A stretch of 63,987 nt of DNA, filler included, from Caldilineae bacterium (GCA_037446815.1; 4 parts of 4 records of this genome joined end to end with filler, not necessarily neighbours in it), one strand, 5' to 3'. Positions 1,461 to 19,129 are shown, counted from the whole stretch's first letter. Made by a program: numbers and translations. The notes: generated by a model not told the origin, from the letters alone.

Positions 1461-1633
1461 GCCCCCATTTGCCGCGCGGTGGAGCAAGGTAGTACAATGC
1501 CGCTGCGATCCTGGCACTTCGGCGAGGTCGCGCCAATGTGAGGACGGGCAGCGAGGCCCCTGCACAGAATAACGGGAATGATGGCATCGCTGCTCCATAG
1601 ATTGCGCCAACACTCACCCTTGGGAGGCACGCC

Positions 1634-3016
1634 ATGAGTCCATCAGCGGAAGCGTATCTGAAAGCCAACGCCGCGCGCATCCAGGACGAACTCCTGGAGT
1701 TCGTGCGAATCCCCAGCATCAGCGCGGACCCGAACCACGCGGAGGATGTCCGTCGGGCCGCAGACTGGGTCGCGCGCGCCATCCGCGCCGCAGGCCCGTT
1801 CACCGTGCGGGTCCTACCAACGCCGCGTCATCCCGTGGTGTACGGCGAATGGGTGGGCGCGCCGGGCAAGCCGACCGTTCTCGTGTACGGCCACTACGAT
1901 GTGCAGCCGCCGGACCCCCTGGACAAATGGCTGACCCCGCCCTTCGCGCCGGACATCCGAGAGGGGCGCATCTACGCGCGCGGCGTCTCGGACGATAAGG
2001 GCCCCATGCTCATCCCCATCAAGGTTGCCGAAGCGTTCTTTGCGACGCACGGTCGCCTGCCTCTCAACGTCAAGTTCCTGTTTGAGGGCGAAGAGGAGAT
2101 CGGAAGCCCGAGCCTGGAGGCGTTCGTGGAGCAGAACCGCGAGATGCTGGCAGCCGACTTTGCCATGTCGGCGGACGGCGCGATGTGGCGAATTGACGAG
2201 CCATCCGTATCCATCTCCAGCCGCGGGCTTGTCGGGCTGGAGTTTACCCTTACCGGACCTGGCAAAGATCTGCACTCGGGACGCCATGGAGGAGCCATCG
2301 CCAATCCCCTGCACGCCATGGCGCAGCTCATCGCCACGCTGCATGCCCCCGACGGCCGCGTCGCCGTTGCCGGGTTCTACGACGACGTCCGGGAACTTTC
2401 CGCCGAGGAGCGTGCCGAGATCCACAACCTCCCGTTTGACGAGCCCCGCTACCTGGACGAGGTCGGCGCCCCCGCCCCGTTCGGCGAGCCCGGATACAGC
2501 ACCCTGGAACGCCAGTGGACTCGCCCAACCCTGGAGGTGAACGGCCTGTGGGGAGGATATCAGGGGCCGGGGAGCAAGACGGTCATTCCCTCCGAGGCCC
2601 ATGCGAAGATCACTTGCCGACTCGTTCCTCGCCAGAACCCCGAGGACATCCTTGCCAAGATTGTGCATCATCTGGAAACTCACCTGCCGCCCGGGGTGCG
2701 CTTGCGGGTGGATGCTTCCGGGCATGGCGCGCAACCGTACCAGATTCCCAGCGATCACGTTGGACTGCGAATGGCGGAAGCGGTCTTGGAGGAGGTGTGC
2801 GGCAAGAAGCCGCTTCGGGTGCGCATTGGCGGCACGATTCCGGTTGCCGCGTGGTTTGAGCATCTGCTACATCAGCACGTGGTGTTCTTCTCATTCTCAA
2901 CGGCCGACGAGGATTTCCATGCCCCCAACGAGTTCTTCCGCATCCACCGCCTTCATGAAGGACTCCGGGCGTGGGCCTTGTACTGGGAGCGACTTGGCGC
3001 CATAGGGGCTTCATAG
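1634..3016 (+). CDS. M20-family dipeptidase/amidohydrolase
   Basis: YGHYDVQP, ARGVSDDKGP, EGEEEIGS, DLHSG and HAPNE motifs; GGGAGG RBS. Confidence 0.9.
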   Translation: MSPSAEAYLKANAARIQDELLEFVRIPSISADPNHAEDVRRAADWVARAIRAAGPFTVRVLPTPRHPVVYGEWVGAPGKPTVLVYGHYDVQPPDPLDKWLTPPFAPDIREGRIYARGVSDDKGPMLIPIKVAEAFFATHGRLPLNVKFLFEGEEEIGSPSLEAFVEQNREMLAADFAMSADGAMWRIDEPSVSISSRGLVGLEFTLTGPGKDLHSGRHGGAIANPLHAMAQLIATLHAPDGRVAVAGFYDDVRELSAEERAEIHNLPFDEPRYLDEVGAPAPFGEPGYSTLERQWTRPTLEVNGLWGGYQGPGSKTVIPSEAHAKITCRLVPRQNPEDILAKIVHHLETHLPPGVRLRVDASGHGAQPYQIPSDHVGLRMAEAVLEEVCGKKPLRVRIGGTIPVAAWFEHLLHQHVVFFSFSTADEDFHAPNEFFRIHRLHEGLRAWALYWERLGAIGAS

Positions 3017-3211
3017 GTCTCGGCGACGGGCTATGGGATTCCGTCAGATGCACGAATGTTCACGGAGACGTGGACCGCGTCTGAAACCCGTCAGAAGTAA
3101 CCAGGCGGGAGCATTTGGCGCCGATACTATCCTGACAATAGGACTGGAGGGACTCGTGGTCCGGTAAGGTTGTTCTCATTGTGAGGCTGAGTTGTAACGA
3201 AGGAGGGAGAC

Positions 3212-4363
3212 ATGAGGACACAGGATATCCACCAGTGGGGGCCGAACACCCGCATTGTCCACGATGACCTTGAGGGCGAGCACATCTGGTATGCGCACGT
3301 GATGCCCATATTCATGTCCAACACCTTCTGCTACGAGGATAGCGAACACCTGCAGGCCGTGTGGCAGCACCGGGAACTCGGCTACATCTACAGCCGCGAT
3401 CGGAACCCCACGGTAGATGCGTTTCAGAAGCGGATGGCGCAACTGGAGCGCGCAGATTGGGCGCAGGCTGCCGCGTCGGGCATGGGGGCCATCAGCGCGG
3501 CCCTGCTCGCGACCCTCAAGGCGGGAGACCACATCGTCTCGTCCGACCAGTTGTACCCCGAAACCCGCGAAATCATTGAAATCCACCTGGAGCAACTCGG
3601 CGTCCGCCACACGTTCGTGGAAATCGCCGACCTGGACGCTGTTCGCCGTGCGATGCGGCCCGAGACAAAGGTCATCTACACCGAGACCTTGTCCAATCCC
3701 TTCCTCATCGTGGCCGACATTTTCGCATTGGCCGACATTGCCCACGAGCACGGTGCGCTGCTCATTGTGGACAATACGTTCACCTCTCCGGCGTTGTTGC
3801 AGCCGCTGGAACTCGGCGCGGACCTGTCCGTGCAGAGCGCCACCAAGTTCATCTGCGGCCACAGCACGGCCATCGGCGGCGTAGTTGCCGGCAGGGACGC
3901 CAAACTCAAGGAAGATGTCTTCCAGATCATACGACGATTCGGCGCGTGCCTCAGCCCATTCAATGCCTGGGTGCTGCTATCGGGCGTCAAGACCCTGTAC
4001 CTTCGCGTGCGGCGTCAATGCGAAAACGCGCTGAGGTTGGCTCAGTTCCTGGAAACGCATCCCGTCATTGAGAAGATATACTACCCAGGGCTGGAGAGCC
4101 ACCCCCAGCACGAACTGGCCAAGCGGCTGATGGGCGGGGTGTACGGGAGCATGATCTCGTTTGAGCCGGTGGGCGGCAAGCAGACCCAGTGGAAGATTCT
4201 TGACAACCTGAAATTGACCTACCTTGCCACGAGCCTGGGCGACATATCCACCCTGGTGATCCACCGCCCCATGCGTGCGGTTACCCGCATTTCGGTGGGC
4301 ATTGAGGAGCCTGAGGACATCATCGCGGACTGGAAACAGGCATTGGATCGCATATCGGTATAG
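3212..4363 (+). CDS. Cys/Met-metabolism PLP enzyme (cystathionine gamma-synthase / methionine gamma-lyase family)
   Basis: YSRDRNPT, SGMGAI, VDNTF, SATKFICGHS (PLP Lys), SLGD and RISVGIE motifs. Confidence 0.85.
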   Translation: MRTQDIHQWGPNTRIVHDDLEGEHIWYAHVMPIFMSNTFCYEDSEHLQAVWQHRELGYIYSRDRNPTVDAFQKRMAQLERADWAQAAASGMGAISAALLATLKAGDHIVSSDQLYPETREIIEIHLEQLGVRHTFVEIADLDAVRRAMRPETKVIYTETLSNPFLIVADIFALADIAHEHGALLIVDNTFTSPALLQPLELGADLSVQSATKFICGHSTAIGGVVAGRDAKLKEDVFQIIRRFGACLSPFNAWVLLSGVKTLYLRVRRQCENALRLAQFLETHPVIEKIYYPGLESHPQHELAKRLMGGVYGSMISFEPVGGKQTQWKILDNLKLTYLATSLGDISTLVIHRPMRAVTRISVGIEEPEDIIADWKQALDRISV

Positions 4364-4406
4364 CGTGCTGCGGGCAAAGCGCCACGGAGCCCCCGCACCT
4401 CCCGTG

Positions 4407-5390
4407 TCAGGGAATCTCGGCGACCTCCGCGCGCTGCCCCGACACGATGACAATCCGTTCGGGCTGAGGCCGCCCCGATGGGGTCATCCCCATGCGACCC
4501 AGCGGGCCGGGCTGGTCCCCCGCCGCTTCCAAGGTTGAGGGGGATCCCCCCGCGCCAAACGCATGATCCAGGAAGTACAGGGTCCCAAACAGCATGCCCG
4601 CCGAGTCAAAGTCGGGCACAGGGTCGCCCTGCATCTGTCGGCGAAATACCCGATTGCTCTCGGAGTCCATGCTCCCCACCCAGTGCCGAACACGCAGCAG
4701 CCGCGCAGGCCACGGGCTGCCGTCGGGCGCGCGGGTGGAGACCATCCCGTCGGCTGCCAAGACGGTGCATTGAGACCACATGCGAAGGGCCGTCGCCGCA
4801 AGGATCGCAGCGCCCGGGTCGTGCATGGTCAGGAACACGGAGAAAGGCTGATCTTCGGAGGGCGGGGTTGCAAGCCACGGAAGCCCGCGCGCCTCCACGG
4901 CCTTCCGGAATGCATCCAGACTTGCCCTGACATACGAGGCTTCGGCGTCGTCAAGGTGCGTCCAGCGCACCACGCTCTCAGGCCACGGCAGGGCCGTCCA
5001 ATCCACACTGGGGACTGGCGGCGCCCCCAACGCAAGGGCGCGCGCGATTCCATTGACACCTGTGCACATTCGGTAGCGGCGGGCATATCCGGGTGGCCGG
5101 TCAAGGAGGTCCTCTACCGTGCTCTTGACGAACACAACCGGAATGTGCCGGGACGCCTCACCTGCAACCGCCGCGAAGCGGGAAGATTCCCCGAGGTAAA
5201 CGAGGATATCTGCGGCCCGCGCCTGCTCTGCAACCGAGCCTAGCCCGAATGCCGCAAAGGCTGGTGTCCAGTGCTCCGCGCAAGCGATGGCGCACTCCCA
5301 CGCCGCTTGAGCGGCCCGGCGCTCGCCTTCGCCCAGGCTAGCGAACGCCACGACCAACCCTACCCGGACCCGTCCCCTTGATGTTTTCAT
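4407..5390 (-). CDS. hypothetical protein, possibly a divergent type-1 periplasmic-binding-protein fold without signal peptide
   Basis: 327-aa ORF ending the minus-strand operon; weak LivK-like cues (RVGLVVAF, IPVVFVKST...RYRM, LGRMGMTPSG). Confidence 0.55.
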   Translation of the reverse strand: MKTSRGRVRVGLVVAFASLGEGERRAAQAAWECAIACAEHWTPAFAAFGLGSVAEQARAADILVYLGESSRFAAVAGEASRHIPVVFVKSTVEDLLDRPPGYARRYRMCTGVNGIARALALGAPPVPSVDWTALPWPESVVRWTHLDDAEASYVRASLDAFRKAVEARGLPWLATPPSEDQPFSVFLTMHDPGAAILAATALRMWSQCTVLAADGMVSTRAPDGSPWPARLLRVRHWVGSMDSESNRVFRRQMQGDPVPDFDSAGMLFGTLYFLDHAFGAGGSPSTLEAAGDQPGPLGRMGMTPSGRPQPERIVIVSGQRAEVAEIP

Positions 5391-5418
5391 AGCCGCCCCC
5401 GGTCGCGATGGATATGCG

Positions 5419-6597
5419 CTAGCCGCACTCTTTCCACTCCGAAGTAACCACGATGCCCCGTTTCCGCAGTTCACGCGCAAACGGCTCGTAGGGCACATCC
5501 TTGACCGGCGACAGAAGGCCGCGCGCGCTCAGTTCGCCTGACCCGATCATCTGAACCCCGATGCTGGCCGTGAATCCGACGGTGCGGCTCATCGCAGTGA
5601 ACCCTGTCGTCAGATCGCGCCAGTCAATGACCTGATACAGGGCGCGTTTGCGCCTGCCCCCTTTGCGCCCCTCAACCTCTACGCGGATGACCGCGATATC
5701 TCGCTCGTTCTCTTGGTACTGAAGGTGCGGCTCCATGACGGCTGCGAGAAAGCGCCTCCGGTCCACCGCAACGCCGTCAACGATCACAGGCTCGCTATCC
5801 AGCAGGTGCAAATCCACCAGTTTCCTCCAGAACTCCGCATGCCCTGGCCATCGGAGCACAAACCGCCCCATGTTCCGCAACTGCGACCTGGGCAGGCCCA
5901 ATAGGTCCGCATACACAAGCGCGTCGCCATTCGGGAAAGCCTCCAGTCGGCCTATGCCCTCCAGTTCCACGTAGTGCAGATTCTCCGGGCGGAACATCTC
6001 GTTCTCCCGAATCTCCACAATCTGCCCGTCTCGGATGATGCGGCCCGCGCGCAGGTACGACTTGAGGACGCCCTCAAATGTCCAGGTTACCTTGTACTGA
6101 ATGGGGTTGTTCGCCGCCTGCGGTTCTGGAAACCCGGCGCCATACGTAACGATATCCTCAACGAAGTCAAACTGACGGACGGCCTCGCCCAACAGCACCA
6201 GGTCTATGCCCGGGTCCATCCCGAATTCGGGCAGGAGGGTAAGGCCCTTCGCTTGGGCTTCGGCGGCAAGGTGCCGTATGGAGGCGGCATACGAGGCATT
6301 GACATAGTGAAGCCCGTGGCGAACCGCCGCTTCCGCGACCATGCTGTTGAAGCGATTCGGCAGCAAATCAAGCGCGACATCGGCTCCCAGCGACATCAGG
6401 CGCTCAATGTCCGCGGGGTCCCGCGCATCGCACGGCTCGCAGCGCACCTTCGCGCCGTAGCCCATGTCCGCGACGTGACGCATGAGCGCCGCGAGATCAA
6501 GGTCCGCCGCAATGACCTCCTCCACCCCATCGCTGCGAGCCAAATCGTGCAAGGCGACCTTGCCCTGCATCCCGACCCCAAGAAGCAACACCCTCAT
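5419..6597 (-). CDS. saccharopine dehydrogenase / lysine 6-dehydrogenase-family oxidoreductase
   Basis: Rossmann motif LLGVGMQG; EFGMDPGID, YKVTWTFEG, LRWPGH and TAMSRTVGF motifs; GAGGAGG RBS. Confidence 0.85.
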   Translation of the reverse strand: MRVLLLGVGMQGKVALHDLARSDGVEEVIAADLDLAALMRHVADMGYGAKVRCEPCDARDPADIERLMSLGADVALDLLPNRFNSMVAEAAVRHGLHYVNASYAASIRHLAAEAQAKGLTLLPEFGMDPGIDLVLLGEAVRQFDFVEDIVTYGAGFPEPQAANNPIQYKVTWTFEGVLKSYLRAGRIIRDGQIVEIRENEMFRPENLHYVELEGIGRLEAFPNGDALVYADLLGLPRSQLRNMGRFVLRWPGHAEFWRKLVDLHLLDSEPVIVDGVAVDRRRFLAAVMEPHLQYQENERDIAVIRVEVEGRKGGRRKRALYQVIDWRDLTTGFTAMSRTVGFTASIGVQMIGSGELSARGLLSPVKDVPYEPFARELRKRGIVVTSEWKECG

Positions 6598-6727
6598 CGC
6601 ACACCTCCTCGCTCAGGGGCGCGTGGAGCGTTTCGCCATCCGCGCCCGACCCTGTGCACGCCCCTCACCGCATAGAGGCGGCGGTGCGCACGACGCGACG
6701 GTCCGCCGTGCCCTTCCGTCGGAAGCG

Positions 6728-7909
6728 CTACGCCGCGAAGGCATCGTAGAAAGCGGCTGCCAAGCGCGTTGTCTCGCTGTTTGGAACGGCAAACGTGGCC
6801 CGAATCTCGGCCTGCTCTGCGAAGGCCACCGGGATGCCCAAGTCGTTCGCAGCGGCCTGGGCCTTCCGGAAATTGCGCGCGATGAACTCCGGGTCGCCCA
6901 CCAGCGACACGAGGCCGACTTGAGAAACAACCTGGCTGACTCCGAGCCTGTCCGATCTCAACGCTTGTTCCACGTCATCGCGCCAGGCGGGCGAAACCGC
7001 GATAACCAGCGCGTCATCGTGAGCGTCCCGCATGCGCACCGCCGCGAAGCGATCAAATAACTCCTCCTGCGCTACAGGCCATCGGGTTCCGTCAGGGACG
7101 CGAAGCAGGTCCACGCTCCCGAGAATCGGAATGCCGACCAACGGACTCTCATCGGCGACATTTGCGATGACTGTGCCCGGACTGTCTGAAAATGTGGAGC
7201 GGGCCACGATGGGCGTATCCCCGCGCTGACCGATGAGCACCGCGCCCGGATGCATGACCCTGGCGCCGAAGATGCCGACTTCGTACATCTTGCGATAACT
7301 GATGCGTTGGAGGTACCGCGCATGGGGAATCACCCGCGGGTCGGCGATCGCAACGCCTGGGACATCGCTGTAGATTTCCACCTTCTCCGCCCCGACGGCG
7401 ACCCCTATGGCGACGCCGGAGGTATCGCTTGCCCCGCGGCCGAGGATGGTGATTTCGCCCTCGGTCTCCGTCGCCCCCTGTCCGCCCGCAATCACCGGCA
7501 CTTCGCCCTGTTCCACATGGCGGAGGATGCGACTCGGGTCAATCCGCGTGATCTTCGCGCGCCGCCAGCGCCCATCGGTGTACACCCGAGCCTGCCATCC
7601 TGTCAGGCCCACCGACCGAAGGCCCGCCAGTTTCAGCAAGTGCGACAGGATCGCGACCGAGATCACTTCCCCGCAGTGGAAGATGAGGTCCTCATCCCTG
7701 CCATCCACCGGCTCGCCCTGCGCGTGAATCAGGTCCAGCAGGGTATCGGTCGCGTACGGCGCCCCTCTGCGCCCCATAGCCGAGACGACAACCACGGGCC
7801 GGTACCCCTCTGCCAGCGTCCGCTTGATGTGTCCAACGACACGTTGTCGGCTCTCCGGAGTGGCAACAGACGTGCCCCCGAATTTCTGCGCTACGATCTT
7901 CTCTGCCAT
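6728..7909 (-). CDS. aspartate kinase (DapG-like, divergent C-terminal ACT region)
   Basis: QKFGGTSV, VVVSAMG..GAPYATDTL, LGRGASDTS and SDVPGVAIADPR motifs; overlaps the asd stop. Confidence 0.9.
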   Translation of the reverse strand: MAEKIVAQKFGGTSVATPESRQRVVGHIKRTLAEGYRPVVVVSAMGRRGAPYATDTLLDLIHAQGEPVDGRDEDLIFHCGEVISVAILSHLLKLAGLRSVGLTGWQARVYTDGRWRRAKITRIDPSRILRHVEQGEVPVIAGGQGATETEGEITILGRGASDTSGVAIGVAVGAEKVEIYSDVPGVAIADPRVIPHARYLQRISYRKMYEVGIFGARVMHPGAVLIGQRGDTPIVARSTFSDSPGTVIANVADESPLVGIPILGSVDLLRVPDGTRWPVAQEELFDRFAAVRMRDAHDDALVIAVSPAWRDDVEQALRSDRLGVSQVVSQVGLVSLVGDPEFIARNFRKAQAAANDLGIPVAFAEQAEIRATFAVPNSETTRLAAAFYDAFAA

Positions 7910-8928
7910 TCCTCAACAAGCCCCTGCTCCACGAGCACCTGCGCGATTTGGACCGCATTCTGGGCCGCCCCTTTGCGCACATTGTCCGAGACCAGGAACA
8001 GGTTCAGGCCGTTCTCAATGGAGAAGTCCTCGCGGATGCGCCCCACGTGGACGAGGTTGCCGCCGCTGACGCGGATGGGCTGCGGAAACTCCAGGTTCTC
8101 AATGTCGTCCACGACCTTCACGCCAGGGGCCTTGCTGAGCGCTTCTCGCGCCTGCTGCACGGTAACCTTGTCGCGGGTCTCTATGTTGCAGGAAACCGAG
8201 TGGCAGTTGAGGACGGGCACGCGCACGGCGGTATCCGTGATCGCCATGTTGGGATCGTGCAGCATCTTGCGCGTCTCGTGGATCATCTTCCACTCTTCCC
8301 GCGTGTAGCCGTCGTCTTCAAAGACATCTATGAACGGAATCAAGTTGTATGCGATCTGATACGCGAACACCGACGGGGGCGACGGCTCAAACCCCGCGGC
8401 AATATCCACGCACTGCTTCTTGAGTTCCAGTTGCCCGCGGATAGCCCCGCCGGAAACCGCCTGGTACGTAGAGGCGACAACCCGCTTGATGGGAGAGAGG
8501 TCGTGGATGGGCTTCAGTACCACAATCGTTCCGATGGTGGTGCAATTGGGATTCGCGATGATACCGTTGTGCCACTTCAGGTCTTCGGGGTTCACTTCGG
8601 GCACCACCAGCGGGACATTCGGGTCCAGGCGGAAATGCCGGCTGTTGTCAATGGCGATGGCGCCGCGCTTGGCCGCCGCGGGGGCCAGCTTGGCGCTGAC
8701 CGCCTCGTGGGTAGCGAAAAGCGCGATGTCAACGCCCTCAAACGCCTCCTCGGTGCCTTCTTCCACGTAGAGCGTCTCCCCTTTGAATCTGACCGGGGTC
8801 CCGACCCATTCTTTGGACTCCAGCAATTTGAGCCTGTTGACCGGGAAGTCGTACTCCTCAAGGATGCGAACCATGGTAGAGCCGACCAACCCCAAGGCTC
8901 CGGCTACCGCAACATTGTAGGTTTTCAT
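7891..8928 (-). CDS. asd: aspartate-semialdehyde dehydrogenase
   Basis: GALGLVG, DNS..FR, VPLVVPEVN, IIANPNCTT (catalytic Cys), STYQAVSG and DNVRKGAA motifs; AGGAGG RBS before ATG 8928. Confidence 0.95.
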   Translation of the reverse strand: MKTYNVAVAGALGLVGSTMVRILEEYDFPVNRLKLLESKEWVGTPVRFKGETLYVEEGTEEAFEGVDIALFATHEAVSAKLAPAAAKRGAIAIDNSRHFRLDPNVPLVVPEVNPEDLKWHNGIIANPNCTTIGTIVVLKPIHDLSPIKRVVASTYQAVSGGAIRGQLELKKQCVDIAAGFEPSPPSVFAYQIAYNLIPFIDVFEDDGYTREEWKMIHETRKMLHDPNMAITDTAVRVPVLNCHSVSCNIETRDKVTVQQAREALSKAPGVKVVDDIENLEFPQPIRVSGGNLVHVGRIREDFSIENGLNLFLVSDNVRKGAAQNAVQIAQVLVEQGLVEEWQRRS

Positions 8929-8969
8929 CTGACCCTCCTGACTGTAGGTTATTGGCTGGACCGCAAGTT

Positions 8970-10145
8970 TCAAACGCGCGCGAGTGCGGCGCGCATTGCT
9001 TCCAGTGCGCGCTCAAGGGTTTCTCGCGAGGCAGCGAATGAGAGGCGCACGTGATTCGCAAAGGATGCTCCAAAGGCGACCCCGGGCACCACGGCGACAC
9101 CCGCTTCCTGCAACAATCGTTGCCCCACTTCCGTGCCGGTGCCGTAGGCTGAGACATCGGGAAAGGCATAGAACGCCCCCTCAATCGGCGGGCACTTCAC
9201 CCCGGGTATGGCGTTCAACCCCTGGACAACCAGGTCTCGCCGGGCCCGAAACTCTGCCACCATGCGAAGCAAGTCGTCCTGCGGCCCGGTGAGGGCGGCG
9301 ACGGCTGCCTTCTGGGCGAACGACGTGGCGCAGGTAACGGAGTGCTGGTGAACCTTGAGCACCGCGCCCATGAGATTGGCCGGGCCTGCCATGTACCCCA
9401 ACCGCCAGCCCGTCATGGCGTAGGACTTGGAGAAGCCGTTGACCACGAAGGTGCGCTCCCGCATGCCCGGCAGAGACGCCACGCTTCGGTGCCTGCGACC
9501 CTCGTACACGAGTTTCTCGTAGATTTCATCCGAAATGACGAGTAGATTCGCCCTTTCCGCGACCGTGGCGATGGCAGCCAGTTCCTCATCCGTGGCGACC
9601 CGACCGGTGGGGTTGTTCGGCGAGTTGAAGACGACCATGCGGGTGCGAGGTGAGAGGCGGGACATGAGCGCGCGCTCCGTGATACGGAAGCCGTCGGCCG
9701 GGTCAAGCGAGACGTGAACGGGGACTCCCCCCGCCAGGCGCACCATGGGGTCATACGAAACCCAGGCGGGATCCAAAATCAGTACCTCATCCCCCGCCTC
9801 CACCGTAGCCATGATAGCGGCGAAGATGGCCTGTTTGCCCCCAATCGTTACCAGAATCTCGCGGTCGGGCGCATACGAAAGCCCGTTGTCCGCCTCCAGT
9901 TTGTCCGATATGGCAGCCAGGAGCGGGCCTATGCCTCTGGAATTGACGTAGTGCGTGAACCCGCCTTTGAGCGCCTGGTACGCTGCCTCAACGATGTGCG
10001 GGGGGGTGTCAAAATCCGGCTCGCCGGCGGTGAGGTCAAAGACGGTTTGCCCCTCATCCAGCCTGCGCTGGGCCAGTTCCCGGAAAGCGAGGGTTGGGGA
10101 AGATTCAATGGATTGGACTCGGCGAGGGAGTGTATAACCTTCCAA
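8970..10145 (-). CDS. class I/II PLP aminotransferase (AspC-like)
   Basis: GEPDFDTP, NSPNNPTG, SDEIYE and FSKSYAMTGWRLGY motifs; TTG start with GGAGG RBS. Confidence 0.9.
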   Translation of the reverse strand: MEGYTLPRRVQSIESSPTLAFRELAQRRLDEGQTVFDLTAGEPDFDTPPHIVEAAYQALKGGFTHYVNSRGIGPLLAAISDKLEADNGLSYAPDREILVTIGGKQAIFAAIMATVEAGDEVLILDPAWVSYDPMVRLAGGVPVHVSLDPADGFRITERALMSRLSPRTRMVVFNSPNNPTGRVATDEELAAIATVAERANLLVISDEIYEKLVYEGRRHRSVASLPGMRERTFVVNGFSKSYAMTGWRLGYMAGPANLMGAVLKVHQHSVTCATSFAQKAAVAALTGPQDDLLRMVAEFRARRDLVVQGLNAIPGVKCPPIEGAFYAFPDVSAYGTGTEVGQRLLQEAGVAVVPGVAFGASFANHVRLSFAASRETLERALEAMRAALARV

Positions 10146-10198
10146 AGGCGCGTTTCCTCCACTTGGGCTAACGGCGTTCTTCGGCCGTCGCGGTCGTC

Positions 10199-10227
10199 AT
10201 TATACGTGTGGAACGCGGTGATGTCAA
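10199..10227 (-). promoter_or_regulatory. consensus sigma70 promoter for the aminotransferase-asd-kinase operon
   Basis: minus-strand TTGACA (10227-10222)-17 bp-TATAAT (10204-10199). Confidence 0.8.
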
Positions 10228-10242
10228 TTTGATATACTAGAC

Positions 10243-10271
10243 TTGACATCCTAGAATTCCCGTGGTATACT
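10243..10271 (+). promoter_or_regulatory. sigma70 promoter for the GntR gene
   Basis: TTGACA(10243-48)-17 bp-TATACT(10266-71) with extended TG. Confidence 0.8.
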
Positions 10272-10300
10272 ACTTAATGCACAGATTCGGAGGTGGTACC

Positions 10301-11005
10301 ATGGCAGAGTGTCCTCCCATGGCCGACCAGGCCTACACCGTAATCAAGCAGGCTATCCTTTCGTGCGCCCTTGAACCCGGGCAGCAGATCGCCCAGGCCC
10401 AGGTCGCCGAGAAGTACAACCTCGGCCTGACCCCGACACGGGAGGCGCTGAAACGCCTGGAGCAGGAAGGGTTCGTTCAGTCGGTGCCACGCTTCGGGTA
10501 CATTGTCAGCCCACTCACGCTATCCGACCTCCACGAACTCTTTGAGTTGCGACTGATCCTTGAGACCGCAGCGGTGCGCCTGGCGGTGGAGCGCGCCACC
10601 GACGAGCAACTGGCCGAACTCAGCGCACTCGCAAAGTCCCGGTACAGATACGGGGACAGGGCCACTTACAGCGCCTACCTGGCCGACAACGCGCGATTCC
10701 ATACGGCGATCGCACTGGCCGCGGGGAATCGCCGATTGGCCGATGGGGTGGCGCGCGTGCTGGACGAACTCACGCGCGTGTTCCACATGGCGCTGGACCT
10801 TCGCGATAGCGCCGATGAGAAAGTGCGCGATCATGTGAATCTGGTGGATGCCCTAATGGCGCGCGATCTGGAGCGGGCGCTGTACTTTGTTCACGAGGAA
10901 ATCGCCCATTCGCAGAAGCGGGTATTGGAGGCATTGGCGGGCCATTTGGGAAGCAGGATTACTTTGCAGCCTGCGCGCCGGTTGAGCGGCACGCTGGCAA
11001 AATGA
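10301..11005 (+). CDS. GntR-family regulator (FCD domain)
   Basis: GntR HTH (AYTVIKQAIL..LEPG..TPTREALKRLEQEG) and FCD motif NARFH...GNRRL; GGAGGT RBS. Confidence 0.9.
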   Translation: MAECPPMADQAYTVIKQAILSCALEPGQQIAQAQVAEKYNLGLTPTREALKRLEQEGFVQSVPRFGYIVSPLTLSDLHELFELRLILETAAVRLAVERATDEQLAELSALAKSRYRYGDRATYSAYLADNARFHTAIALAAGNRRLADGVARVLDELTRVFHMALDLRDSADEKVRDHVNLVDALMARDLERALYFVHEEIAHSQKRVLEALAGHLGSRITLQPARRLSGTLAK

Positions 11006-11025
11006 TGCCGGATCGCAGAAAACTC

Positions 11026-11054
11026 TTGACAGAATGGGTTTTCAATGTTATAAT
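11026..11054 (+). promoter_or_regulatory. consensus sigma70 promoter
   Basis: TTGACA(11026-31)-17 bp-TATAAT(11049-54) with extended TG. Confidence 0.8.
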
Positions 11055-11146
11055 AGCGTTATAGTACGGTGTTACATCGTCCCCAACCGCGTCATCCCGA
11101 ACGTGCACCTGAGATAGGCACCTGGCTGAGCAGGAGCGGCGGCTTG

Positions 11147-12133
11147 ATGCAATTGCACATAGACCGTGGCATTCCGGTCCCCATCTCGGAACAGATCAAG
11201 GGACAGATTTCATACGCAATCATGTGCGGCATCCTTCGTCCTGGCGACATTCTTCCATCTGTCCGCGATCTCTCCGAGACGCTGGGCGTTTCGCCTATGA
11301 CCGTTGCCCGTGTCTATCGCGAACTGGCTAACGACGACTTGATTGTGGCAAAACCTGGCGCCGGGACGCAGGTGGCCGACATCGCCCGCATCAACGGGCG
11401 CGATAGGCACCAGGTGGCCCAGAAAAGTCTGAGGCAAATCGCGGACATGTACATGCGCCACGCGCTTTCGCTGGGACACCCCATTGCCGAAGTGCGCAGG
11501 GAATTCCTGAGTCGCCTGGAAGCCCACGAGCAGAACGGAGGCATTCGCCAGATCGCACTCGTCGGAAACTTTGACAACGCCACCCGACGATACACGCATG
11601 ACATGGAGAGCATGTTGCATGACCTCGGCGTTCGGGTCGTCCCGCTCGTACTGGGCGATCTTGAACGCGACTTCTCGGGGAGCCTGGAGCGACTGCGCAA
11701 CGTGGCCCTGGTGGTAACTATTCCATCGCGGCTGCAGACCGTGCGGGCGTTGCTGGAGCCGCATGGATACACCGTGGTGGCGGTTGCGTTTCGGCCCCGC
11801 CCTGAAACGCAGCGCAGAATCGCAGCCATTCCTCCGGGGATGCGTATCGGAGTCGTGGCGACATATCCCGAATTCCTGCAGTCCTTGCTGGATGAGGTCT
11901 CTTCGTACTGCCTGGCGCAGCAGCCCCTCCTTCGTGCCACGCTGCACCAGGAGGAGCGGATTCGGGAGATGCTCTCACAGATAGACGTTCTTGTGTACGC
12001 CAGTGGCAGCGATACGATATTGGATTGGCTGCCGCCGAATGTAGAGGCCATAGAGTATCAGTATTGGCCCGACGCCGACTCCGTCAATCGTTTGCGTCCG
12101 TTGATTGCCAAGATGCTACCGGTCACGGCATAA
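11147..12133 (+). CDS. GntR (YtrA-like HTH) regulator with long alpha/beta C-terminal domain
   Basis: PISEQIKGQI...LPSVRDL..LGVSPMTVARVYREL...PGAGTQV. Confidence 0.85.
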   Translation: MQLHIDRGIPVPISEQIKGQISYAIMCGILRPGDILPSVRDLSETLGVSPMTVARVYRELANDDLIVAKPGAGTQVADIARINGRDRHQVAQKSLRQIADMYMRHALSLGHPIAEVRREFLSRLEAHEQNGGIRQIALVGNFDNATRRYTHDMESMLHDLGVRVVPLVLGDLERDFSGSLERLRNVALVVTIPSRLQTVRALLEPHGYTVVAVAFRPRPETQRRIAAIPPGMRIGVVATYPEFLQSLLDEVSSYCLAQQPLLRATLHQEERIREMLSQIDVLVYASGSDTILDWLPPNVEAIEYQYWPDADSVNRLRPLIAKMLPVTA

Positions 12134-12439
12134 GGCAGCGCGGCCCGCCCGAATGGGCGATATCTTCTGACTCCAGGCTGCAATGACGCAGCGCACTACA
12201 ACTGCTAGTCGCACGTCTTCCGCTCAACGCTGAGTGAACCCATTGTACACATCGGAACCGGGGTGTGGCCTTTGGCAAGGTTGCGGTTGATTCTGCGCAA
12301 GCCCGGCGAGGAAGCACACAACCTTGCCCCAGCGAGTTTGGAGGAGGTGAGCAGAAAGAGCGTAAACTGGGAGTTTCCTAGAGTTCGGAAGCAGTAGGAG
12401 GATCGCCGACAAGGACTTTCGCGTAAGGGAGGAAGAGAG

Positions 12440-14107
12440 ATGCGAAAGCGAGTGTTTGCAGCAGTATCTGTGCTGGTACTCTTGTCCATGGTGCTGGGTG
12501 CGTGCGGCCCCGCAGCGACGCCCACACAGCCGCCCGCGCAGCCTACGACCCCGCCGGCCCAGCCCACCACGCCACCGGCGCAGCCTACCACCCCGCCGCC
12601 CACGCAGCCGCCGGCCGAGAAGACCCTGGTCATCGCCATCGGAGCCGATGCCACGTACCTGGACCCCGAGTCGGTCATGAACAACGAGTCGGGCTTTGTG
12701 ATGTCGTGCATCTTTGACGGCCTCACCAAGTACAAGAAGGGCACGTCCGAGCCCGGCCCGGGTCTCGCGGAAAGATGGGATGTTTCTCCGGACGGCAAGG
12801 TGTACACCTTCTACTTGCGCAAAGGCGTCAAGTTCCATGATGGGACACCCTTCAATGCCGACGCCGTCTTGAAGGAATTGGACCGGGTGAAGAATCCGGA
12901 CAACCCTTACTACGTGTACAAGCAGGAAGGTGTGCATAGTTTCGCCGACTTCACGTGGGGCGTCGTGGAGTCCTACGAAAAGGTAGATGACTACACGGTG
13001 AAGATCACCCTCAAGGAGCCCCACGCGCCGTTCCTCGCCAGCATCGCCATGGTATGGTCGGGCATCATGAGCCCCGCCGCGGTTGAGAAGTGGGGATTTG
13101 ATGTGAACTACCATCCGGTGGGCACCGGCCCGTTCAAACTGGTGGAATGGGTGCGCAACGACCATATCACCCTGGAGGCGAACAAGGAGTACTGGGACGG
13201 CGCGCCGAAGGTGGACAAACTCATCTTCCGCGTTGTCCCCGAAAGTTCGGTGCGGCTTCTGAAGTTGGAGCAGGGTGAAGTCCACATCCTGGCCGACGTG
13301 GACCCCGAGGACTACCAGCGCATTCAGAGCAACCCGCAGTTGAAACTGCTGGAGCAGCCCGGACTCACGGTGAACGGCATTGCCCTCATCTGCGACGCGA
13401 AACCGTGGGACGACGTGCGCGTGCGGCAGGCGGTCAACTACGCCGTGAACAAGGAGGAGATGAACAAGTTCCTGTACAAGGACGCGGCCGTTACCGCGGC
13501 CACCGGCATGCCGCCGATCCTGCCGGGGTACCCGAAGGACCTGGAACCCTATCCGTATGACCCGGCGAAGGCCAAGCAACTGCTCGCCGAGGCGGGGTAT
13601 CCCAACGGGTTCAAGTACAAACTCCTGTGCTACGAGAACCCGCGCGGCTACAACCCCGTCGGCATCAAGATGGCCGTCGCAGTCCAAGAATACCTCAAGG
13701 AAGTCGGCATTGAACTGGAACTTGAAACGCTGGAGTGGGGCACGTTCCTGGCGACGCGTCGCCGCGCCGACAACAAGGACCTCGGCATGGTGGGCTGGTC
13801 GGGCGACAATGGCGACCCGGACAACTTCCTTTGGGAGATGTTCAGCAGCGACAACATCCCCGTGGGCAATACGGCTCACTACTCCAATCCGAAACTGGAC
13901 GAGATCCTGCGGAAGGCCCGTGTCGTAACCGACCCGGCGGAGCGCGCCAAACTGTATGAGGAGGCCAGCCGTATCATCCACGATGACGCGCCGTGGCTCT
14001 TCATCAACCACACCAAGCACGTGCGCGCCATCCGCGCCAACGTGGAAGGTTTCGCCCTGAACCCATTGCAGATGTTCTGGTACATGGAAGACGTGGAACT
14101 GAAGTAG
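12440..14107 (+). CDS. peptide/nickel ABC transporter substrate-binding lipoprotein (DppA-like) with Pro/Thr linker
   Basis: lipobox LGAC; PAQPTTP repeats; family-5 motifs PGLAERWDVS.DG..YTFYLRKGVKFHDG and GTGPFK. Confidence 0.92.
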   Translation: MRKRVFAAVSVLVLLSMVLGACGPAATPTQPPAQPTTPPAQPTTPPAQPTTPPPTQPPAEKTLVIAIGADATYLDPESVMNNESGFVMSCIFDGLTKYKKGTSEPGPGLAERWDVSPDGKVYTFYLRKGVKFHDGTPFNADAVLKELDRVKNPDNPYYVYKQEGVHSFADFTWGVVESYEKVDDYTVKITLKEPHAPFLASIAMVWSGIMSPAAVEKWGFDVNYHPVGTGPFKLVEWVRNDHITLEANKEYWDGAPKVDKLIFRVVPESSVRLLKLEQGEVHILADVDPEDYQRIQSNPQLKLLEQPGLTVNGIALICDAKPWDDVRVRQAVNYAVNKEEMNKFLYKDAAVTAATGMPPILPGYPKDLEPYPYDPAKAKQLLAEAGYPNGFKYKLLCYENPRGYNPVGIKMAVAVQEYLKEVGIELELETLEWGTFLATRRRADNKDLGMVGWSGDNGDPDNFLWEMFSSDNIPVGNTAHYSNPKLDEILRKARVVTDPAERAKLYEEASRIIHDDAPWLFINHTKHVRAIRANVEGFALNPLQMFWYMEDVELK

Positions 14108-14120
14108 CGATTCGCACGGT

Positions 14121-14160
14121 AGCGCCTGGGGCCGGTTCCAGGAGGGCCGGCCCCAGGTGC
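14121..14160 (+). other. GC-rich stem-loop after the SBP gene (mRNA stabiliser or attenuator)
   Basis: GCGCCTGGGGCCGG...CCGGCCCCAGGTGC with no U-tract. Confidence 0.55.
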
Positions 14161-14189
14161 TAGCCGAACGCGCGAACAAGAGGTGACGC

Positions 14190-15194
14190 TTGGGCCGTTA
14201 TGTCATCCGAAGAGTCCTGCAAATGATTCCCGTTCTCATCGGTGTCAGCATCTTCGTCTTCGTGGGGATGCACATTGTGCCGGGCGACGTGGCTACGCTA
14301 CTGCTGGGAGACAAGGCAACGCCCGAGTCCTTGGCCCGCCTGCAGCACGAACTGGGCCTTGACCAGCCCGTCTACGTGCAATACTACCGCTTCATCGTCA
14401 AGGCCTTGCACGGGGATTTCGGCGTCTCACTGCGCACGCGCCAACCGGCCTGGCGCGAGGTGTGGTGGGCCCTGCCGATGACGATTGAACTCTCCATCTG
14501 CGCCATCATCGTGGCAGTGCTAGTGGGCATTCCGGTTGGCGTGCTCGCCGCCCTCCGCCAGTACTCGTTCTTTGACTCGTTGTCCATGGTGGCTGTTCTC
14601 GTAGGCGTATCCATGCCCATTTTCTGGACCGGACTCATCTTGCTCATGTTGTTTGGAGGGAGGCTCCACTGGCTGCCGATAGGCGGCATTTTGGACGAGG
14701 GCATCGTATTCCGCCCGATCACGGGCATACACCTGCTGGACACTCTGCTGGTTGGGGATACGCAAGTGTTCAACTCGGCGTTGCGCCATCTCATACTGCC
14801 ATCCATTGCGCTGGGGAGCATCCCCATGGCGACGATCGCCCGCATGACGCGCTCCGCGATGCTGGAAGTGCTCCGCCAGGATTATGTGCGGACGGCGCGG
14901 TCCAAGGGGTTGAGCGAGCGCCTGGTGATCATCCGTCATGCGCTGCGCAATTCGCTCATCCCCGTGGTTACCGTAATCGGCCTCCAACTGGGCCTTCTGC
15001 TGTCGGGAGCGGTTCTCACCGAGACGGTCTTCGCGCTGCCTGGCCTGGGACGCCTCGCCATCACATCGCTCCTGGCCCGGGACTATGCGGTCGTGCAGGC
15101 CGTGGTCATCATATCCGCTCTCATGATTGTGGTCATCAACCTGGCTGTTGACATCCTGTACGCTTACCTGGATCCTCGCATACACTACACGTAA
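14190..15194 (+). CDS. ABC permease (DppB-like)
   Basis: TTG start after GAGGTG; YVRTARSKGL EAA-type loop; YAYLDPRI ending. Confidence 0.92.
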   Translation: MGRYVIRRVLQMIPVLIGVSIFVFVGMHIVPGDVATLLLGDKATPESLARLQHELGLDQPVYVQYYRFIVKALHGDFGVSLRTRQPAWREVWWALPMTIELSICAIIVAVLVGIPVGVLAALRQYSFFDSLSMVAVLVGVSMPIFWTGLILLMLFGGRLHWLPIGGILDEGIVFRPITGIHLLDTLLVGDTQVFNSALRHLILPSIALGSIPMATIARMTRSAMLEVLRQDYVRTARSKGLSERLVIIRHALRNSLIPVVTVIGLQLGLLLSGAVLTETVFALPGLGRLAITSLLARDYAVVQAVVIISALMIVVINLAVDILYAYLDPRIHYT

Positions 15195-15210
15195 GGAAGG
15201 TCCCTGATCC

Positions 15211-16122
15211 ATGGCCAATCAGGTGCAGTTGGACGCCAAAGCGATTGCGCGGTCGCGCATTGCTGCTACCGAGCGCAGGGCCGCCAGCACGCCATCCGTG
15301 TTCCGCCGCTTGCTGCGCAGTAAGTCAGCCATCATCGGTCTGGCGATTATCCTCACCATCACGCTCGTTGCCATATTCGCCGAGCAAATCGCTCCCTATG
15401 ACCCCATCAAGCAGAGTTTCATCCGCCAACTTCGTCCACCTTCGGCCTCATTCCCTCTGGGCACAGATGAGTTCGGCCGCGATATTCTCAGCCGCATCAT
15501 CCACGGGGCCCGTTGGGCGCTCTTGGCGGGTATTCTAGCCGACAGCATCGCGCTGGTGTTGGGCGTCTCGCTGGGGCTCATTGGGGGCTACTACGGGGGC
15601 AAGATAGACGCATTCGTGGTCTGGCTTACCGATGTGATGCTTGCGTTCCCTTACCTCCTCCTGGCGATGATTGTCGTTGCGATATTTGGGCCCGGCATCC
15701 GCAACGCGATGATTGCCGTGGGCATCGTCTACATGCCCCAGTACGCCCGTCTCGTTCGGGGAACTGTACTGTCGCTCAAAGAAAAGGAATTCGTGGAGGC
15801 TGCGCGCGCTATTGGTGCGTCCTCTTTCCGCATCATGTTCCGCCACATTCTGCCGAACTGCGTGGCTCCCATCATCGTGATGGCCACCCTGGCGGTCGGT
15901 TGGGCGATCGTCCAAACGGCGGGGCTTTCGTTTCTGGGCTTGGGAGCCCGCCATCCGATGCCGGAATGGGGCGCGATGCTCGCCGGCGGGCGGAACTACA
16001 TGCTGTCGGCGTGGTGGATTGCTACCTTTCCCGGGCTTGCAATCGTCATCACGGTTATCGGTTTCAACCTGCTGGGCGATGGACTCAGGGATGTCCTAGA
16101 CCCCTACCTGAGGGGACGCTAG
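15211..16122 (+). CDS. ABC permease (DppC-like)
   Basis: LGTDEFGRDILSR, EFVEAARAIGA and GDGLRDVLDP motifs. Confidence 0.92.
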   Translation: MANQVQLDAKAIARSRIAATERRAASTPSVFRRLLRSKSAIIGLAIILTITLVAIFAEQIAPYDPIKQSFIRQLRPPSASFPLGTDEFGRDILSRIIHGARWALLAGILADSIALVLGVSLGLIGGYYGGKIDAFVVWLTDVMLAFPYLLLAMIVVAIFGPGIRNAMIAVGIVYMPQYARLVRGTVLSLKEKEFVEAARAIGASSFRIMFRHILPNCVAPIIVMATLAVGWAIVQTAGLSFLGLGARHPMPEWGAMLAGGRNYMLSAWWIATFPGLAIVITVIGFNLLGDGLRDVLDPYLRGR

Positions 16123-16309
16123 TTTGCGGGGCGTAAGGGCAGGGCGAGAGGCCCTTCCAGGAGATGAGAATCCGCGCCCACGCCCGTTACGGCAGCAAAG
16201 GAAGCCCATGCGAGGATCCTGCCTATGTCTGGGGCGCTGCCCAATCGGATACCGCCCACCACCCAAGGCCCAAGAGATTTCCAAAAACTCACACGAAAAG
16301 GAGACAAGA

Positions 16310-17158
16310 ATGGCTAAGAAGAAGTATCTGCTAGAGCACATGACCTGGCCGGAAGCGCTGGAGGCATTCTCGCGCAAGCCCTGTGTGGTTGTGATCCCCA
16401 TTGGCTCTACGGAGCAGCATGGCCCGCACATGCCGCTGGGTACCGACTTCCTCACCGCGCAGGAATTCGCGCGGCGGCTTGGCGAACGCGCCAACGTGAT
16501 CGTTACGCCGACGCTCCCGATAGGCTACGCCAAGTATCACACCAGTTTCCCCGGCACGCTGTCCGTGAACGAGGACACGCTGGCAAACATGCTCATGGAG
16601 ATTTGCCAGGACCTGGTGAGTTACGGGGCCACGCACATCCTCTTCGTAAACGGCCACGGGGGGAACATGCAGGCCATTCGCCAGTGCGGGGAGATGCTCC
16701 GCACCCTGGGCGTACCGATGGCCGCGGTGGTCTATTGGAAGGTCATCCAGACCGTGAATCCGGAATGGCTGCCCATCGGGCACGGCGACTACGTGGAAAC
16801 GGCCCTCGTTCTGGCGCTGGATGAATCGCTGCCCAACATGAAGATCGCCAAGATCCCGACAAGCAAGAAGTTGAGCGATGCGATCGCGCTGGATACGCCG
16901 CACGACGCGAAGTTCCATGGAGGCTCGGTCTTTGTGAACCTCATCACGGCGGACCTGACCGATAGCGGCGACATGCTGGAACTGGGGCTGTCGGCTGCAA
17001 CTAACTACGACACGCCGCCCACAGCCGCCTCCAAGGAGATGGGAGAGAAGATTTACCAGGGCATTACCGATTACCTGGTGAAGTTCGTTGAGGAGTTTGG
17101 CAAGGTGAAACTCCCGCCCGTTGAGTCGCTTGGCCCGCTTGGAAAGCGCGACGCGTAG
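16310..17158 (+). CDS. creatininase-family cyclic amidohydrolase
   Basis: MTWPE, PIGSTEQHGPHMPLGTD, NGHGGN and HG...ET motifs; AAGGAG RBS. Confidence 0.9.
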   Translation: MAKKKYLLEHMTWPEALEAFSRKPCVVVIPIGSTEQHGPHMPLGTDFLTAQEFARRLGERANVIVTPTLPIGYAKYHTSFPGTLSVNEDTLANMLMEICQDLVSYGATHILFVNGHGGNMQAIRQCGEMLRTLGVPMAAVVYWKVIQTVNPEWLPIGHGDYVETALVLALDESLPNMKIAKIPTSKKLSDAIALDTPHDAKFHGGSVFVNLITADLTDSGDMLELGLSAATNYDTPPTAASKEMGEKIYQGITDYLVKFVEEFGKVKLPPVESLGPLGKRDA

Positions 17159-17190
17159 TTGCGCCATCCGCCGTTGGAAAGGAGATAGGT

Positions 17191-18144
17191 ATGGCATCGG
17201 TGTTGAAGGTAGGGGATTACTCTGCGGCAAAGGGCACAAAGACATCGGGCATCCAAGAGTTGCAGGTTGCCGGGCACACCGTCCAGGTGCCTCTCTTTCT
17301 GGTTCACGGGGCGCAGCCCGGTCCGACGCTGGTCGTAACGGCGGGTGTTCACGGCGCGGAATACGCCAGCATCGCGGCTGCGCTGGAGATTGGTCAGAAC
17401 CTCAAGCCCGAAGCCGTGCACGGCAGCGCGATCGTGGCGCCGGTGGTGAACATGCCGGCATTCCGCGCCCGGTCCATCTACGTTTGCCCGCTGGACGGGA
17501 AGAATCTGAACCGCGTATTCCCCGGTCAGGAAGACGGCTCTGCCTCCGAGCAGTTGGCCTACTGGCTGTTCCGCAATCTTCTGAAGCGAGCCGACTACTA
17601 CGTGGATTTGCACGGCGGCGACTTGATTGAGGCGCTGATTCCGTTCACGATTTACCATGCCTCCGGGAACGCAAGCGTGGATGAGAGGTCCATGGAATTG
17701 GCGCAGGTCTTCGGGATTCCATACGTCGTGCGCAGTGAGACGCAGGGGTCTACCTATTCTGCGGCGGCGCGGGCGGGCATTCCGAGCATGCTGGCAGAAG
17801 CGGGAGGCCAGGGGTTGTGGCCCAAGGAAGCCGTCGCGCTTCTCACCACGGGCGTAGACCGGCTGATGCGACACCTGGGGATGCTGGACGGCCCAAAGCC
17901 CGAACCCGTGCCTACGCAGACGCTGGAGCGGTTCATCTGGCTGCGGAGCGAGCACGACGGATACTACTATCTTGACGTGCAGGTGGGCGACACGGTACGC
18001 CAAGGCCAGCCCCTGGGCCGCATCACCGACTACGAGGGCCGGGTTCTCCAGCATGTGGAAGCGCCCGCCACCGGCCGGATTCTGTTCCTGGTGTCGTCGC
18101 TGGCCATCAACAAGGGGGACCCGTTGCTGGCCGTGGGGGCGTGA
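17191..18144 (+). CDS. succinylglutamate desuccinylase/aspartoacylase-family (M14) deacylase
   Basis: AGVHGAEY, NLNRVFPG, DLHGG and EAGG motifs; C-terminal biotinyl-like domain. Confidence 0.9.
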   Translation: MASVLKVGDYSAAKGTKTSGIQELQVAGHTVQVPLFLVHGAQPGPTLVVTAGVHGAEYASIAAALEIGQNLKPEAVHGSAIVAPVVNMPAFRARSIYVCPLDGKNLNRVFPGQEDGSASEQLAYWLFRNLLKRADYYVDLHGGDLIEALIPFTIYHASGNASVDERSMELAQVFGIPYVVRSETQGSTYSAAARAGIPSMLAEAGGQGLWPKEAVALLTTGVDRLMRHLGMLDGPKPEPVPTQTLERFIWLRSEHDGYYYLDVQVGDTVRQGQPLGRITDYEGRVLQHVEAPATGRILFLVSSLAINKGDPLLAVGA

Positions 18145-18217
18145 GGGGAGGATTGCCCACAGTACCCATTACCACATGCCTGATGCTCACAACAAGGAGA
18201 GTCTACACATGTTGCTA

Positions 18218-19125: not shown

Positions 19126-19129
19126 GGCG

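Follow-up and report, generated by a model that had tools for sequence, protein, structure and literature searches.

In Bacillus, the asd-dapG(-dapA) genes form an aspartate-pathway operon, and in Firmicutes the placing of asd beside a DapG-type aspartokinase is familiar from biosynthesis. A quite different setting for the product of asd, aspartate semialdehyde (ASA), is the degradation of ectoine by DoeA, DoeB, DoeD and DoeC in Halomonas elongata, where DoeC is an aldehyde dehydrogenase (ALDH)-type ASA dehydrogenase (PMC3187862). Here we describe a locus of a Caldilineae bacterium (GCA_037446815.1) in which asd and an aspartokinase (AK) gene lie in one predicted operon with a gene of an undescribed family, here called UNK, and opposite a putative importer and hydrolases. 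The stretch of DNA analysed, the window, is 63,987 nucleotides long, filler included; positions 1-19437, which hold the locus (1634-18144), are a single contig (C45), and the remainder is made up of other contigs. The source is a metagenome-assembled genome of the Chloroflexota (G000; 3.19 Mb, 265 contigs, 93.6% complete). A preliminary description, made from the sequence alone, had proposed a catabolic pathway centred on ASA and 3-amino-3-carboxypropyl compounds; the gene content that it named was fully borne out by Pfam and NCBIfam profile scans of 18 window proteins, from which our gene map is drawn.

The asd-UNK(-AK) set is a laterally moving module, and it is the sole source of ASA in two recipient lineages. 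In the window the module forms part of a predicted minus-strand operon of five genes, as follows.

8970 to 10145, minus strand: class I aminotransferase resembling aspartate aminotransferase, at the head of the operon (PF00155, 254.8 bits)
7891 to 8973, minus strand: asd, bacterial type (NF011456, 432.5 bits, cut-off 223; TIGR01296, 391.9 bits, cut-off 324.2)
6728 to 7909, minus strand: AK with an apparently degenerate regulatory tail (PF00696, 146.7 bits; TIGR00657, 228 bits, cut-off 208.7)
5419 to 6597, minus strand: saccharopine-dehydrogenase-family oxidoreductase, here called SDH-like (PF03435, 67.4 bits; PF16653, 190.7 bits)
4407 to 5390, minus strand: UNK, 327 aa, last gene of the operon (no Pfam or NCBIfam match)

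As in the Bacillus operon, a bacterial-type asd stands directly beside a monofunctional DapG-type AK, and the pair supplies ASA. Unlike that operon, the window operon has no dapA, its AK has an apparently degenerate ACT tail, the module has been laterally transferred, and an aminotransferase, the SDH-like gene and UNK belong to the same unit, with a GntR/FCD regulator and an importer alongside. The window asd has C144 (in NPNC), H258, R115, R251 and E226, all of which are invariant in 12 sequences (alignment A2). We take C144 and H258 to be catalytic, and the arginine and glutamate residues to be those that bind phosphate and the substrate's free amino-acid end. On its equivalog scores and these residues, the gene is judged to be a genuine asd. 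A pathway acting on N-acyl-aspartate in the manner of ArgBCDE or LysZYJK was considered and rejected, because asd retains the residues for a free amino-acid substrate. The best model for AK is the DapG-type PRK08210, and no equivalog model reaches its cut-off (TIGR00656, for instance, 245 against 402). With most models, and with every aspartokinase in the PDB, the alignment is confined to residues ~5-270 of AK; a single model, NF005154, spans residues 3-391, at 241.5 bits against a cut-off of 376. The ACT regulatory tail appears degenerate and cannot be aligned to solved aspartokinases.

A PF02774 search found one asd in the genome, and a TIGR00657 search one true aspartokinase, in both cases the window's; the other TIGR00657 matches were a free-standing two-ACT protein and a short gene of the amino-acid-kinase family. 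The genes hom, two for dihydrodipicolinate synthase (DHDPS) and two for ThrC lie on other contigs. As the window's asd and AK are the sole copies and these downstream genes lie elsewhere, the two must supply ASA, and a net forward flux from aspartate to ASA is obligatory in this genome for lysine and diaminopimelate, threonine and methionine. In each of three congeners (G001, G002 and G004) there is likewise a single asd, of the same type, and a single AK. Separate housekeeping lysC and asd copies, which the preliminary description had left to be looked for, were therefore found neither here nor in these congeners, and this counts against a purely catabolic role. Two further features of the genus may be recorded here. 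A free-standing 167-aa ACT-only protein (L003:1489-1992, contig C15), which matches positions 288-440 of TIGR00657, is kept in all five genus members and could be a separately encoded regulatory subunit. The two DHDPS-family genes stand in tandem (L056 and L057, contig C25:23231-25494, ~240-248 bits each), as they do also in G001 and G003.

Bacterial-type asd scores above cut-off in only 5 of 41 genomes of the class, namely those of the genus and G036, and the archaeal type, asd_EA, is present in all five other classmates checked and in none of the genus. On sequence comparison, asd and AK are judged not to be native to the class and to have been laterally acquired. Outside the genus, copy number was checked in one whole genome, the acidobacteriote G665. 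There the UNK-linked asd, 73% identical to the window's, is the only asd, the second PF02774 match being argC, and a ThrA-type aspartokinase-homoserine dehydrogenase is present besides the UNK-linked AK. Among 61 Acidobacteriota genomes, 8 had an asd match at E <= 1e-30, the next best after G665 being 51% identical. In a tree of 21 asd sequences, all 12 UNK-linked asd fell on one branch with 100/100 support; the comparison set is small, and membership of the UNK-linked group followed from the way its loci were retrieved. In two lineages or more, the UNK-linked asd clade has displaced the native asd.

The partner of this asd, UNK (5390-4407), is the fifth gene of the operon and was not mentioned in the preliminary description. 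It has no sequence match in Pfam, NCBIfam or the PDB. Its 70 homologues (53-80% identity) are unnamed without exception, lack Pfam domains and share motifs such as YLGESSRF, VKST, FLTMHDP and RVRHW and 49 invariant columns. Only 11 of 1.84 billion cluster representatives matched a UNK profile, three or four of them over the full length, and no ordinary binding protein was among the matches at E <= 0.001. UNK is present in one of 401 Chloroflexota genomes, the window's own (none of the 400 others), and in one of 351 Acidobacteriota genomes, and a cluster look-up of 9 homologues yielded a single name, 'hypothetical protein', from candidate division KSB1. The family is tiny, isolated in sequence and undescribed. 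No fused long forms of UNK were found, which is weak evidence; an apparent fusion of UNK and creatininase, the 445-aa P0074, looks like a frameshift or chimera and was set aside.

The AlphaFold model of UNK (pLDDT 94.1) has a type I, two-lobe binding-protein fold. The nearest folds are those of Leu/Ile/Val-binding proteins, led by the leucine-binding protein 4q6b (Z 24.5, 286 residues aligned, root-mean-square deviation 3.1; Foldseek E 8.5e-11), AmiC (PDB 1pea) aligns over 294 residues with Z 20.7 and a deviation of 4.0, and no enzyme is found among the top 50 fold matches. With its first strand starting at residue 8, the model leaves no space for a signal peptide, so that UNK is predicted to be cytoplasmic, and from the model we take it to be a cytoplasmic protein of the LivJ/AmiC fold. 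It shares the two-lobe fold of LivJ and LivK (Peripla_BP_6), but belongs to no such sequence family and has no export signal. The likeness to AmiC, which senses amides in the cytoplasm for the amidase operon of Pseudomonas, extends to the type I fold, the absence of a signal peptide and the company of amidases and other hydrolases. As differences, UNK shows no sequence similarity to AmiC, has no AmiR-like partner that we could see, is closely coupled to asd in its loci and is rich in invariant charged residues.

The neighbourhood of UNK was followed in 24 metagenome loci, many of them interrelated and representing perhaps six to eight independent lineages. Eleven of them contain asd, and in most others the sequence ends immediately upstream of UNK. 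Six have the arrangement of the window. Five read TonB receptor - Amidohydro_1 - asd - UNK, with AK upstream where the flank reaches, and L083 reads Amidohydro_1 - UNK - asd - AK. A further four hold a set of creatininase-family and AstE-family hydrolase genes. The longest of these, L085, begins with AK, a family-5 solute-binding protein (SBP5), two permeases and two ATPases, and continues further on with asd - UNK - AstE - amidase - SBP5 - creatininase - creatininase - AstE - M20; L093 reads UNK - creatininase - AstE - amidase, L099 reads UNK - AstE - amidase, and L100 has AK / asd - UNK followed at some distance by gamma-glutamyltranspeptidase - creatininase - AstE and then by an OPT transporter. 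Four loci of one lineage have a divergent ALDH-like gene - UNK - pntAB - pntB - DUF1028, and the last four are either short or of another make-up. A single 55 kb metagenome contig carries both L098 and L100 and thus holds two separate asd-UNK-AK sets, one with a TonB receptor and amidohydrolase and the other with the gamma-glutamyltranspeptidase, creatininase, AstE and OPT genes just mentioned. The lineage with the ALDH-like gene is of high GC content (L095, L097, L101, L102); its ALDH-like protein has 564-587 aa, and no pntAA was seen in its loci. Open reading frames (ORFs) in high-GC loci are greedy picks and are wrong in places, for example in L097. The order UNK-pntAB-pntB in this lineage raised the idea that UNK substitutes for the dI component of transhydrogenase, for which the fold gives no support.

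Recurrent near UNK are thus AK, creatininase, AstE, amidase, Amidohydro_1, M20, TonB receptors, Dpp/Nik-type ABC importers and OPT. Of these, creatininase, AstE, M20 and importer genes are present on the plus strand of the window, in the following arrangement.

1634 to 3016, plus strand: M20 family dipeptidase (NF006053, 545 bits, cut-off 441; PF01546 and PF07687)
3212 to 4363, plus strand: Cys/Met-metabolism pyridoxal-phosphate (PLP) enzyme of the gamma-synthase/lyase family (PF01053, 390 bits)
10199 to 10271, both strands: back-to-back sigma-70-like promoters with GTATAC-type repeats
10262 to 11005, plus strand: GntR/FCD regulator, divergent from the minus-strand operon (PF00392 and PF07729)
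11069 to 12133, plus strand: second GntR-type regulator, with a C-terminal part of ~250 aa without family match (PF00392 only)
12440 to 14107, plus strand: SBP5 of an ABC importer (PF00496, SBP_bac_5, 370 bits)
14190 to 15194 and 15211 to 16122, plus strand: two ABC permeases (PF00528)
16124 to 17158, plus strand: creatininase-family hydrolase (PF02633, 194.5 bits)
17191 to 18144, plus strand: AstE/aspartoacylase (AspA)-family deacylase (PF24827, 111.9 bits)
18560 to 19318, plus strand: IS630 transposase near the contig end (NF033545, 134.9 bits, cut-off 100)

The aminotransferase and asd genes overlap by 4 nt and asd and AK by 19 nt, and gaps of 130 nt and 28 nt separate AK from the SDH-like gene and the latter from UNK. 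The minus-strand promoter at 10227-10199 matches a sigma-70-like pattern at 12 of 12 positions and the plus-strand promoter at 11 of 12; the second GntR-type gene has its own 12/12 promoter at 11026-11054. These overlaps, gaps and promoters point to a pair of divergent transcription units with a common GntR-type control region. The promoters and repeats at 10199-10271 are kept in the congeners and in the more distant relative L082, and the GntR/FCD gene has the same position in L006, L007, L071, L079 and L082. An Rfam scan (E <= 0.1) revealed no riboswitch or other RNA family in 1-19437. The importer/hydrolase operon breaks off at the IS630 transposase, with the contig ending at 19437, and in congener G004 that position is taken by one more creatininase-family gene and one more SBP5 gene; the operon was probably interrupted, or the assembly broken, at the IS630 site. 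No ATPase genes for the importer occur on contig C45. Elsewhere in the window, two ORFs without Pfam or NCBIfam match lie at 423-1070 (minus strand, 215 aa) and 997-1395 (plus strand, 132 aa), and an OmcA/MtrC-type decahaem cytochrome at 20152-22467 is encoded on a different contig and does not adjoin the cluster.

SBP5 falls below the cut-offs of DppA (354.5 against 1005), NikA (218.4 against 393) and CntA (170.7 against 800). Relative to cut-off the permeases come nearest to nickel-type models (Opp2B, 312.7 against 350; Opp2C, 295.1 against 300), with DppB at 347.5 against 590 and DppC at 298.4 against 483, so that neither SBP5 nor the permeases reach the equivalog level for a DppABC dipeptide importer. 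The creatininase-family protein likewise scores below the models for creatininase itself (TIGR04448, 94 against 235) and MftE (109 against 172) and belongs to superfamily PF02633 only.

The preliminary description had tied asd and AK functionally to the importer and hydrolases, and the recurrent loci around UNK support such a link, as judged by gene neighbourhood, with amide import and hydrolysis. It is conceivable that no shared pathway underlies it: asd and AK could be plain housekeeping genes of acquired type, UNK an unrelated accessory, and the importers and hydrolases chance neighbours in peptide-degrading bacteria. The sole-copy status of asd and AK would agree with this, as would the known arrangement of asd beside a DapG-type AK in Firmicutes and the derivation of many loci from few related lineages; asd is 97-98% identical among the congeners, compared with 71-82% for the neighbouring proteins, which fits an essential gene. 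However, a specific pair of creatininase and AstE genes recurs beside UNK and asd in L085, L093 and L100, where the creatininase homologues are 55-61% identical to the window's and the AstE homologues that follow them 55-62%; a 54% identical M20 homologue closes the hydrolase row in L085. Moreover, L082 preserves the divergent GntR layout (62-86% identity), and hydrolases occur in the flank of 11 of the 18 UNK loci outside the genus type. The absence of any shared pathway is for these reasons quite unlikely. As for conservation of the wider neighbourhood, asd, AK, the creatininase-AstE pair, M20 and a Dpp/Nik-type importer do recur around UNK in other lineages, but the SDH-like gene, the aminotransferase and the gamma-lyase-family gene are linked only in close relatives. 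Our open-access literature search found no paper joining creatininase with asd or aspartokinase.

We tentatively favour a forward, salvage reading of the locus, which we regard as possible, if somewhat short of probable. The importer would take up a peptide-like or N-acyl compound, from which the creatininase-family, AstE-family and M20 hydrolases would free aspartate; AK and asd would feed this aspartate into the ASA pool, presumably also in other hosts; and UNK, as a ligand-binding protein and AmiC-like sensor, may tune the module in place of the seemingly decayed ACT domains of AK. Several observations weigh against this. The sensor role is drawn from the fold, and the 49 invariant columns would fit an enzyme too. 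Conversion of aspartate to ASA within a utilisation locus has no obvious rationale. In congener G003, whose assembly is 98% complete and has two DHDPS genes, asd, AK and the SDH orthologue are absent, probably because a compositionally foreign contig was left unbinned. A last group of observations gives the module a catabolic look: a TonB receptor and amidohydrolase precede asd-UNK in five loci, AK is the first gene of an ABC-importer operon in L085, the GntR/FCD regulator is divergent, one contig carries two sets of the module, an ALDH-like gene can stand in for asd, and the congeners have a glutamate mutase.

These last observations would agree with a catabolic module, which is a narrowed form of the pathway first proposed: an imported amide would be opened and deacylated by the creatininase- and AstE-family enzymes to a C4 amino compound that gives rise to ASA, and asd and AK would run in reverse to give aspartate, NADPH and ATP, the same enzymes covering biosynthesis in the genus, where the native asd was lost. 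Besides the utilisation-type contexts with importers and hydrolases, the two module copies on one contig and the glutamate mutase in the congeners' operon, this would account for the operator-like repeats conserved at the divergent GntR/FCD regulator and for an AK without recognisable feedback domain. The ALDH-like protein in the place of asd (L095, L097, L101) retains the ELG and Cys motifs of catalysis and parallels DoeC of ectoine breakdown (PMC3187862). The locus resembles the ectoine pathway also in having a ring- or amide-opening hydrolase followed by an AstE-family deacylase, with ASA as the node before aspartate, and differs in having a phosphorylating asd and AK in the place of DoeC and an importer of the Dpp/Nik type. 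All AstE paralogues match the DoeB model best, but the window's protein scores 129.1 against a cut-off of 402.7 for TIGR02994 and is not a DoeB orthologue. The 18 window proteins include no M24 hydrolase of the DoeA type, no diaminobutyrate transaminase and no ALDH-type ASA dehydrogenase. Further points against a catabolic module are that none of the conserved genes qualifies as an ASA-forming enzyme, all loci being devoid of class III transaminases and homoserine dehydrogenases and the aminotransferase being confined to the genus; that the nearest folds of UNK are all binding proteins; and that neither of the whole genomes checked (G000 and G665) has a second asd. The open-access search found no paper on such a reverse route, nor any relevant paper on aspartokinase with substrate-level phosphorylation. 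We consider this narrowed catabolic reading unlikely. A more general version, in which AK-asd-UNK would serve as a transferable, energy-conserving terminal unit for the breakdown of amide-linked C4 amino compounds, with UNK delivering or forming ASA, asd and AK running in reverse in the manner of GAPDH and PGK to yield aspartate, NADPH and ATP, and the module also displacing the native asd in two lineages, seems to us similarly doubtful.

A third possibility is that the operon is one of specialised biosynthesis, in which ASA would come from the aminotransferase, AK and asd, and the SDH-like enzyme would condense it reductively with an amine or glutamate. The N-(3-amino-3-carboxypropyl) product, for example a polyamine precursor or a metallophore of the opine type, would be re-imported by a Nik/Cnt-like importer. 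The gene order, running from oxaloacetate through aspartate and aspartyl phosphate to ASA and then to an SDH-family enzyme, invites this reading, as do the nickel/metallophore-type models (Opp2B, Opp2C, NikC) to which the permeases come nearest relative to cut-off, and the TonB receptor, Nik/Dpp-type ABC and OPT genes near UNK, which we take to be metallophore uptake types. Like saccharopine reductase (LYS9, or the SDH domain of AASS) and carboxyspermidine dehydrogenase (CASDH), the SDH-like enzyme has PF03435 and PF16653, but with ~390 aa it is shorter than these (~450-500 aa). The link to CASDH made in the preliminary description proved remote: saccharopine reductases match at E 6e-36, compared with E 1.1e-4 for CASDH 8deb, and as there is also no decarboxylase in the region we rejected the CASDH identity. 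Homologues of the SDH-like enzyme (33-76% identity) were found at 47 loci in many phyla, including archaea, and have an aminotransferase, asd and AK nearby in only two, both of congeners. Linkage to asd is thus confined to the genus and near relatives, with unrelated neighbours at the other 45. Scanning of 55 of 107 computed ORFs from 26 of these other loci gave a varied picture, with M20 adjoining in L013 and L046 and a class I aminotransferase, gamma-glutamyltranspeptidase and DUF4438 also present. UNK is found in none of 34 genomes that bear an SDH homologue, and in L086 it directly follows glmL without SDH. The hydrolases would have no role in such a biosynthesis, and neither an exporter nor a decarboxylase was seen. 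Specialised biosynthesis is accordingly highly unlikely.

The remaining operon genes vary likewise. The best NCBIfam model for the aminotransferase is aspartate aminotransferase (389.5 against a cut-off of 550), and the Cys/Met PLP enzyme, of which a second full-length paralogue lies on contig C200, is below every NCBIfam equivalog cut-off (best O-succinylhomoserine sulfhydrylase, 383 against 522); both genes are linked to the module only in close relatives. Three congeners have a glmE-glmS-glmL cassette (glutamate mutase and accessory protein) between AK and the SDH-like gene, all three genes scoring above equivalog cut-offs. The cassette was seen at L006:4240-7572, L007:6476-9966 and L071, and in L082. 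A third ThrC-like paralogue (176-183 bits, cut-off 167) follows UNK in three congeners (G001, G002 and G004; for example L006:9912-11033, minus strand), only in the three genomes with the cassette, and all five genus members carry two other thrC genes. The observation that asd and AK have no dap, hom or thr neighbours holds for the whole window, but not for these congeners. There is no glmE in the window's genome; searches of the window for remnants of glmE, glmS, glmL and the ThrC-like gene gave only chance-level matches (E > 0.6), and the AK-SDH spacer bears no clear scar. A glutamate-mutase route via 3-methylaspartate, for example to 2-oxobutyrate and isoleucine, is conceivable; the open-access search found no paper linking glutamate mutase with asd. 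By their distribution, the SDH-like, aminotransferase and gamma-lyase-family genes appear to be lineage-specific additions to the module, as do the glutamate mutase and ThrC-like genes of the congeners.

Textbooks present asd and aspartokinase as enzymes of biosynthesis, and both are drug targets. In the literature searched we found no description of an asd clade that crosses phyla with an undescribed partner of binding-protein fold, of an UNK-linked asd that has taken the place of the native gene in at least two lineages, or of asd-UNK placed repeatedly within loci for import and hydrolysis. UNK, as a small and isolated family with one strong genomic partner, offers a direct handle for biochemistry, and whether the trunk of the aspartate pathway may serve catabolism or energy conservation in anaerobes is now a testable question.

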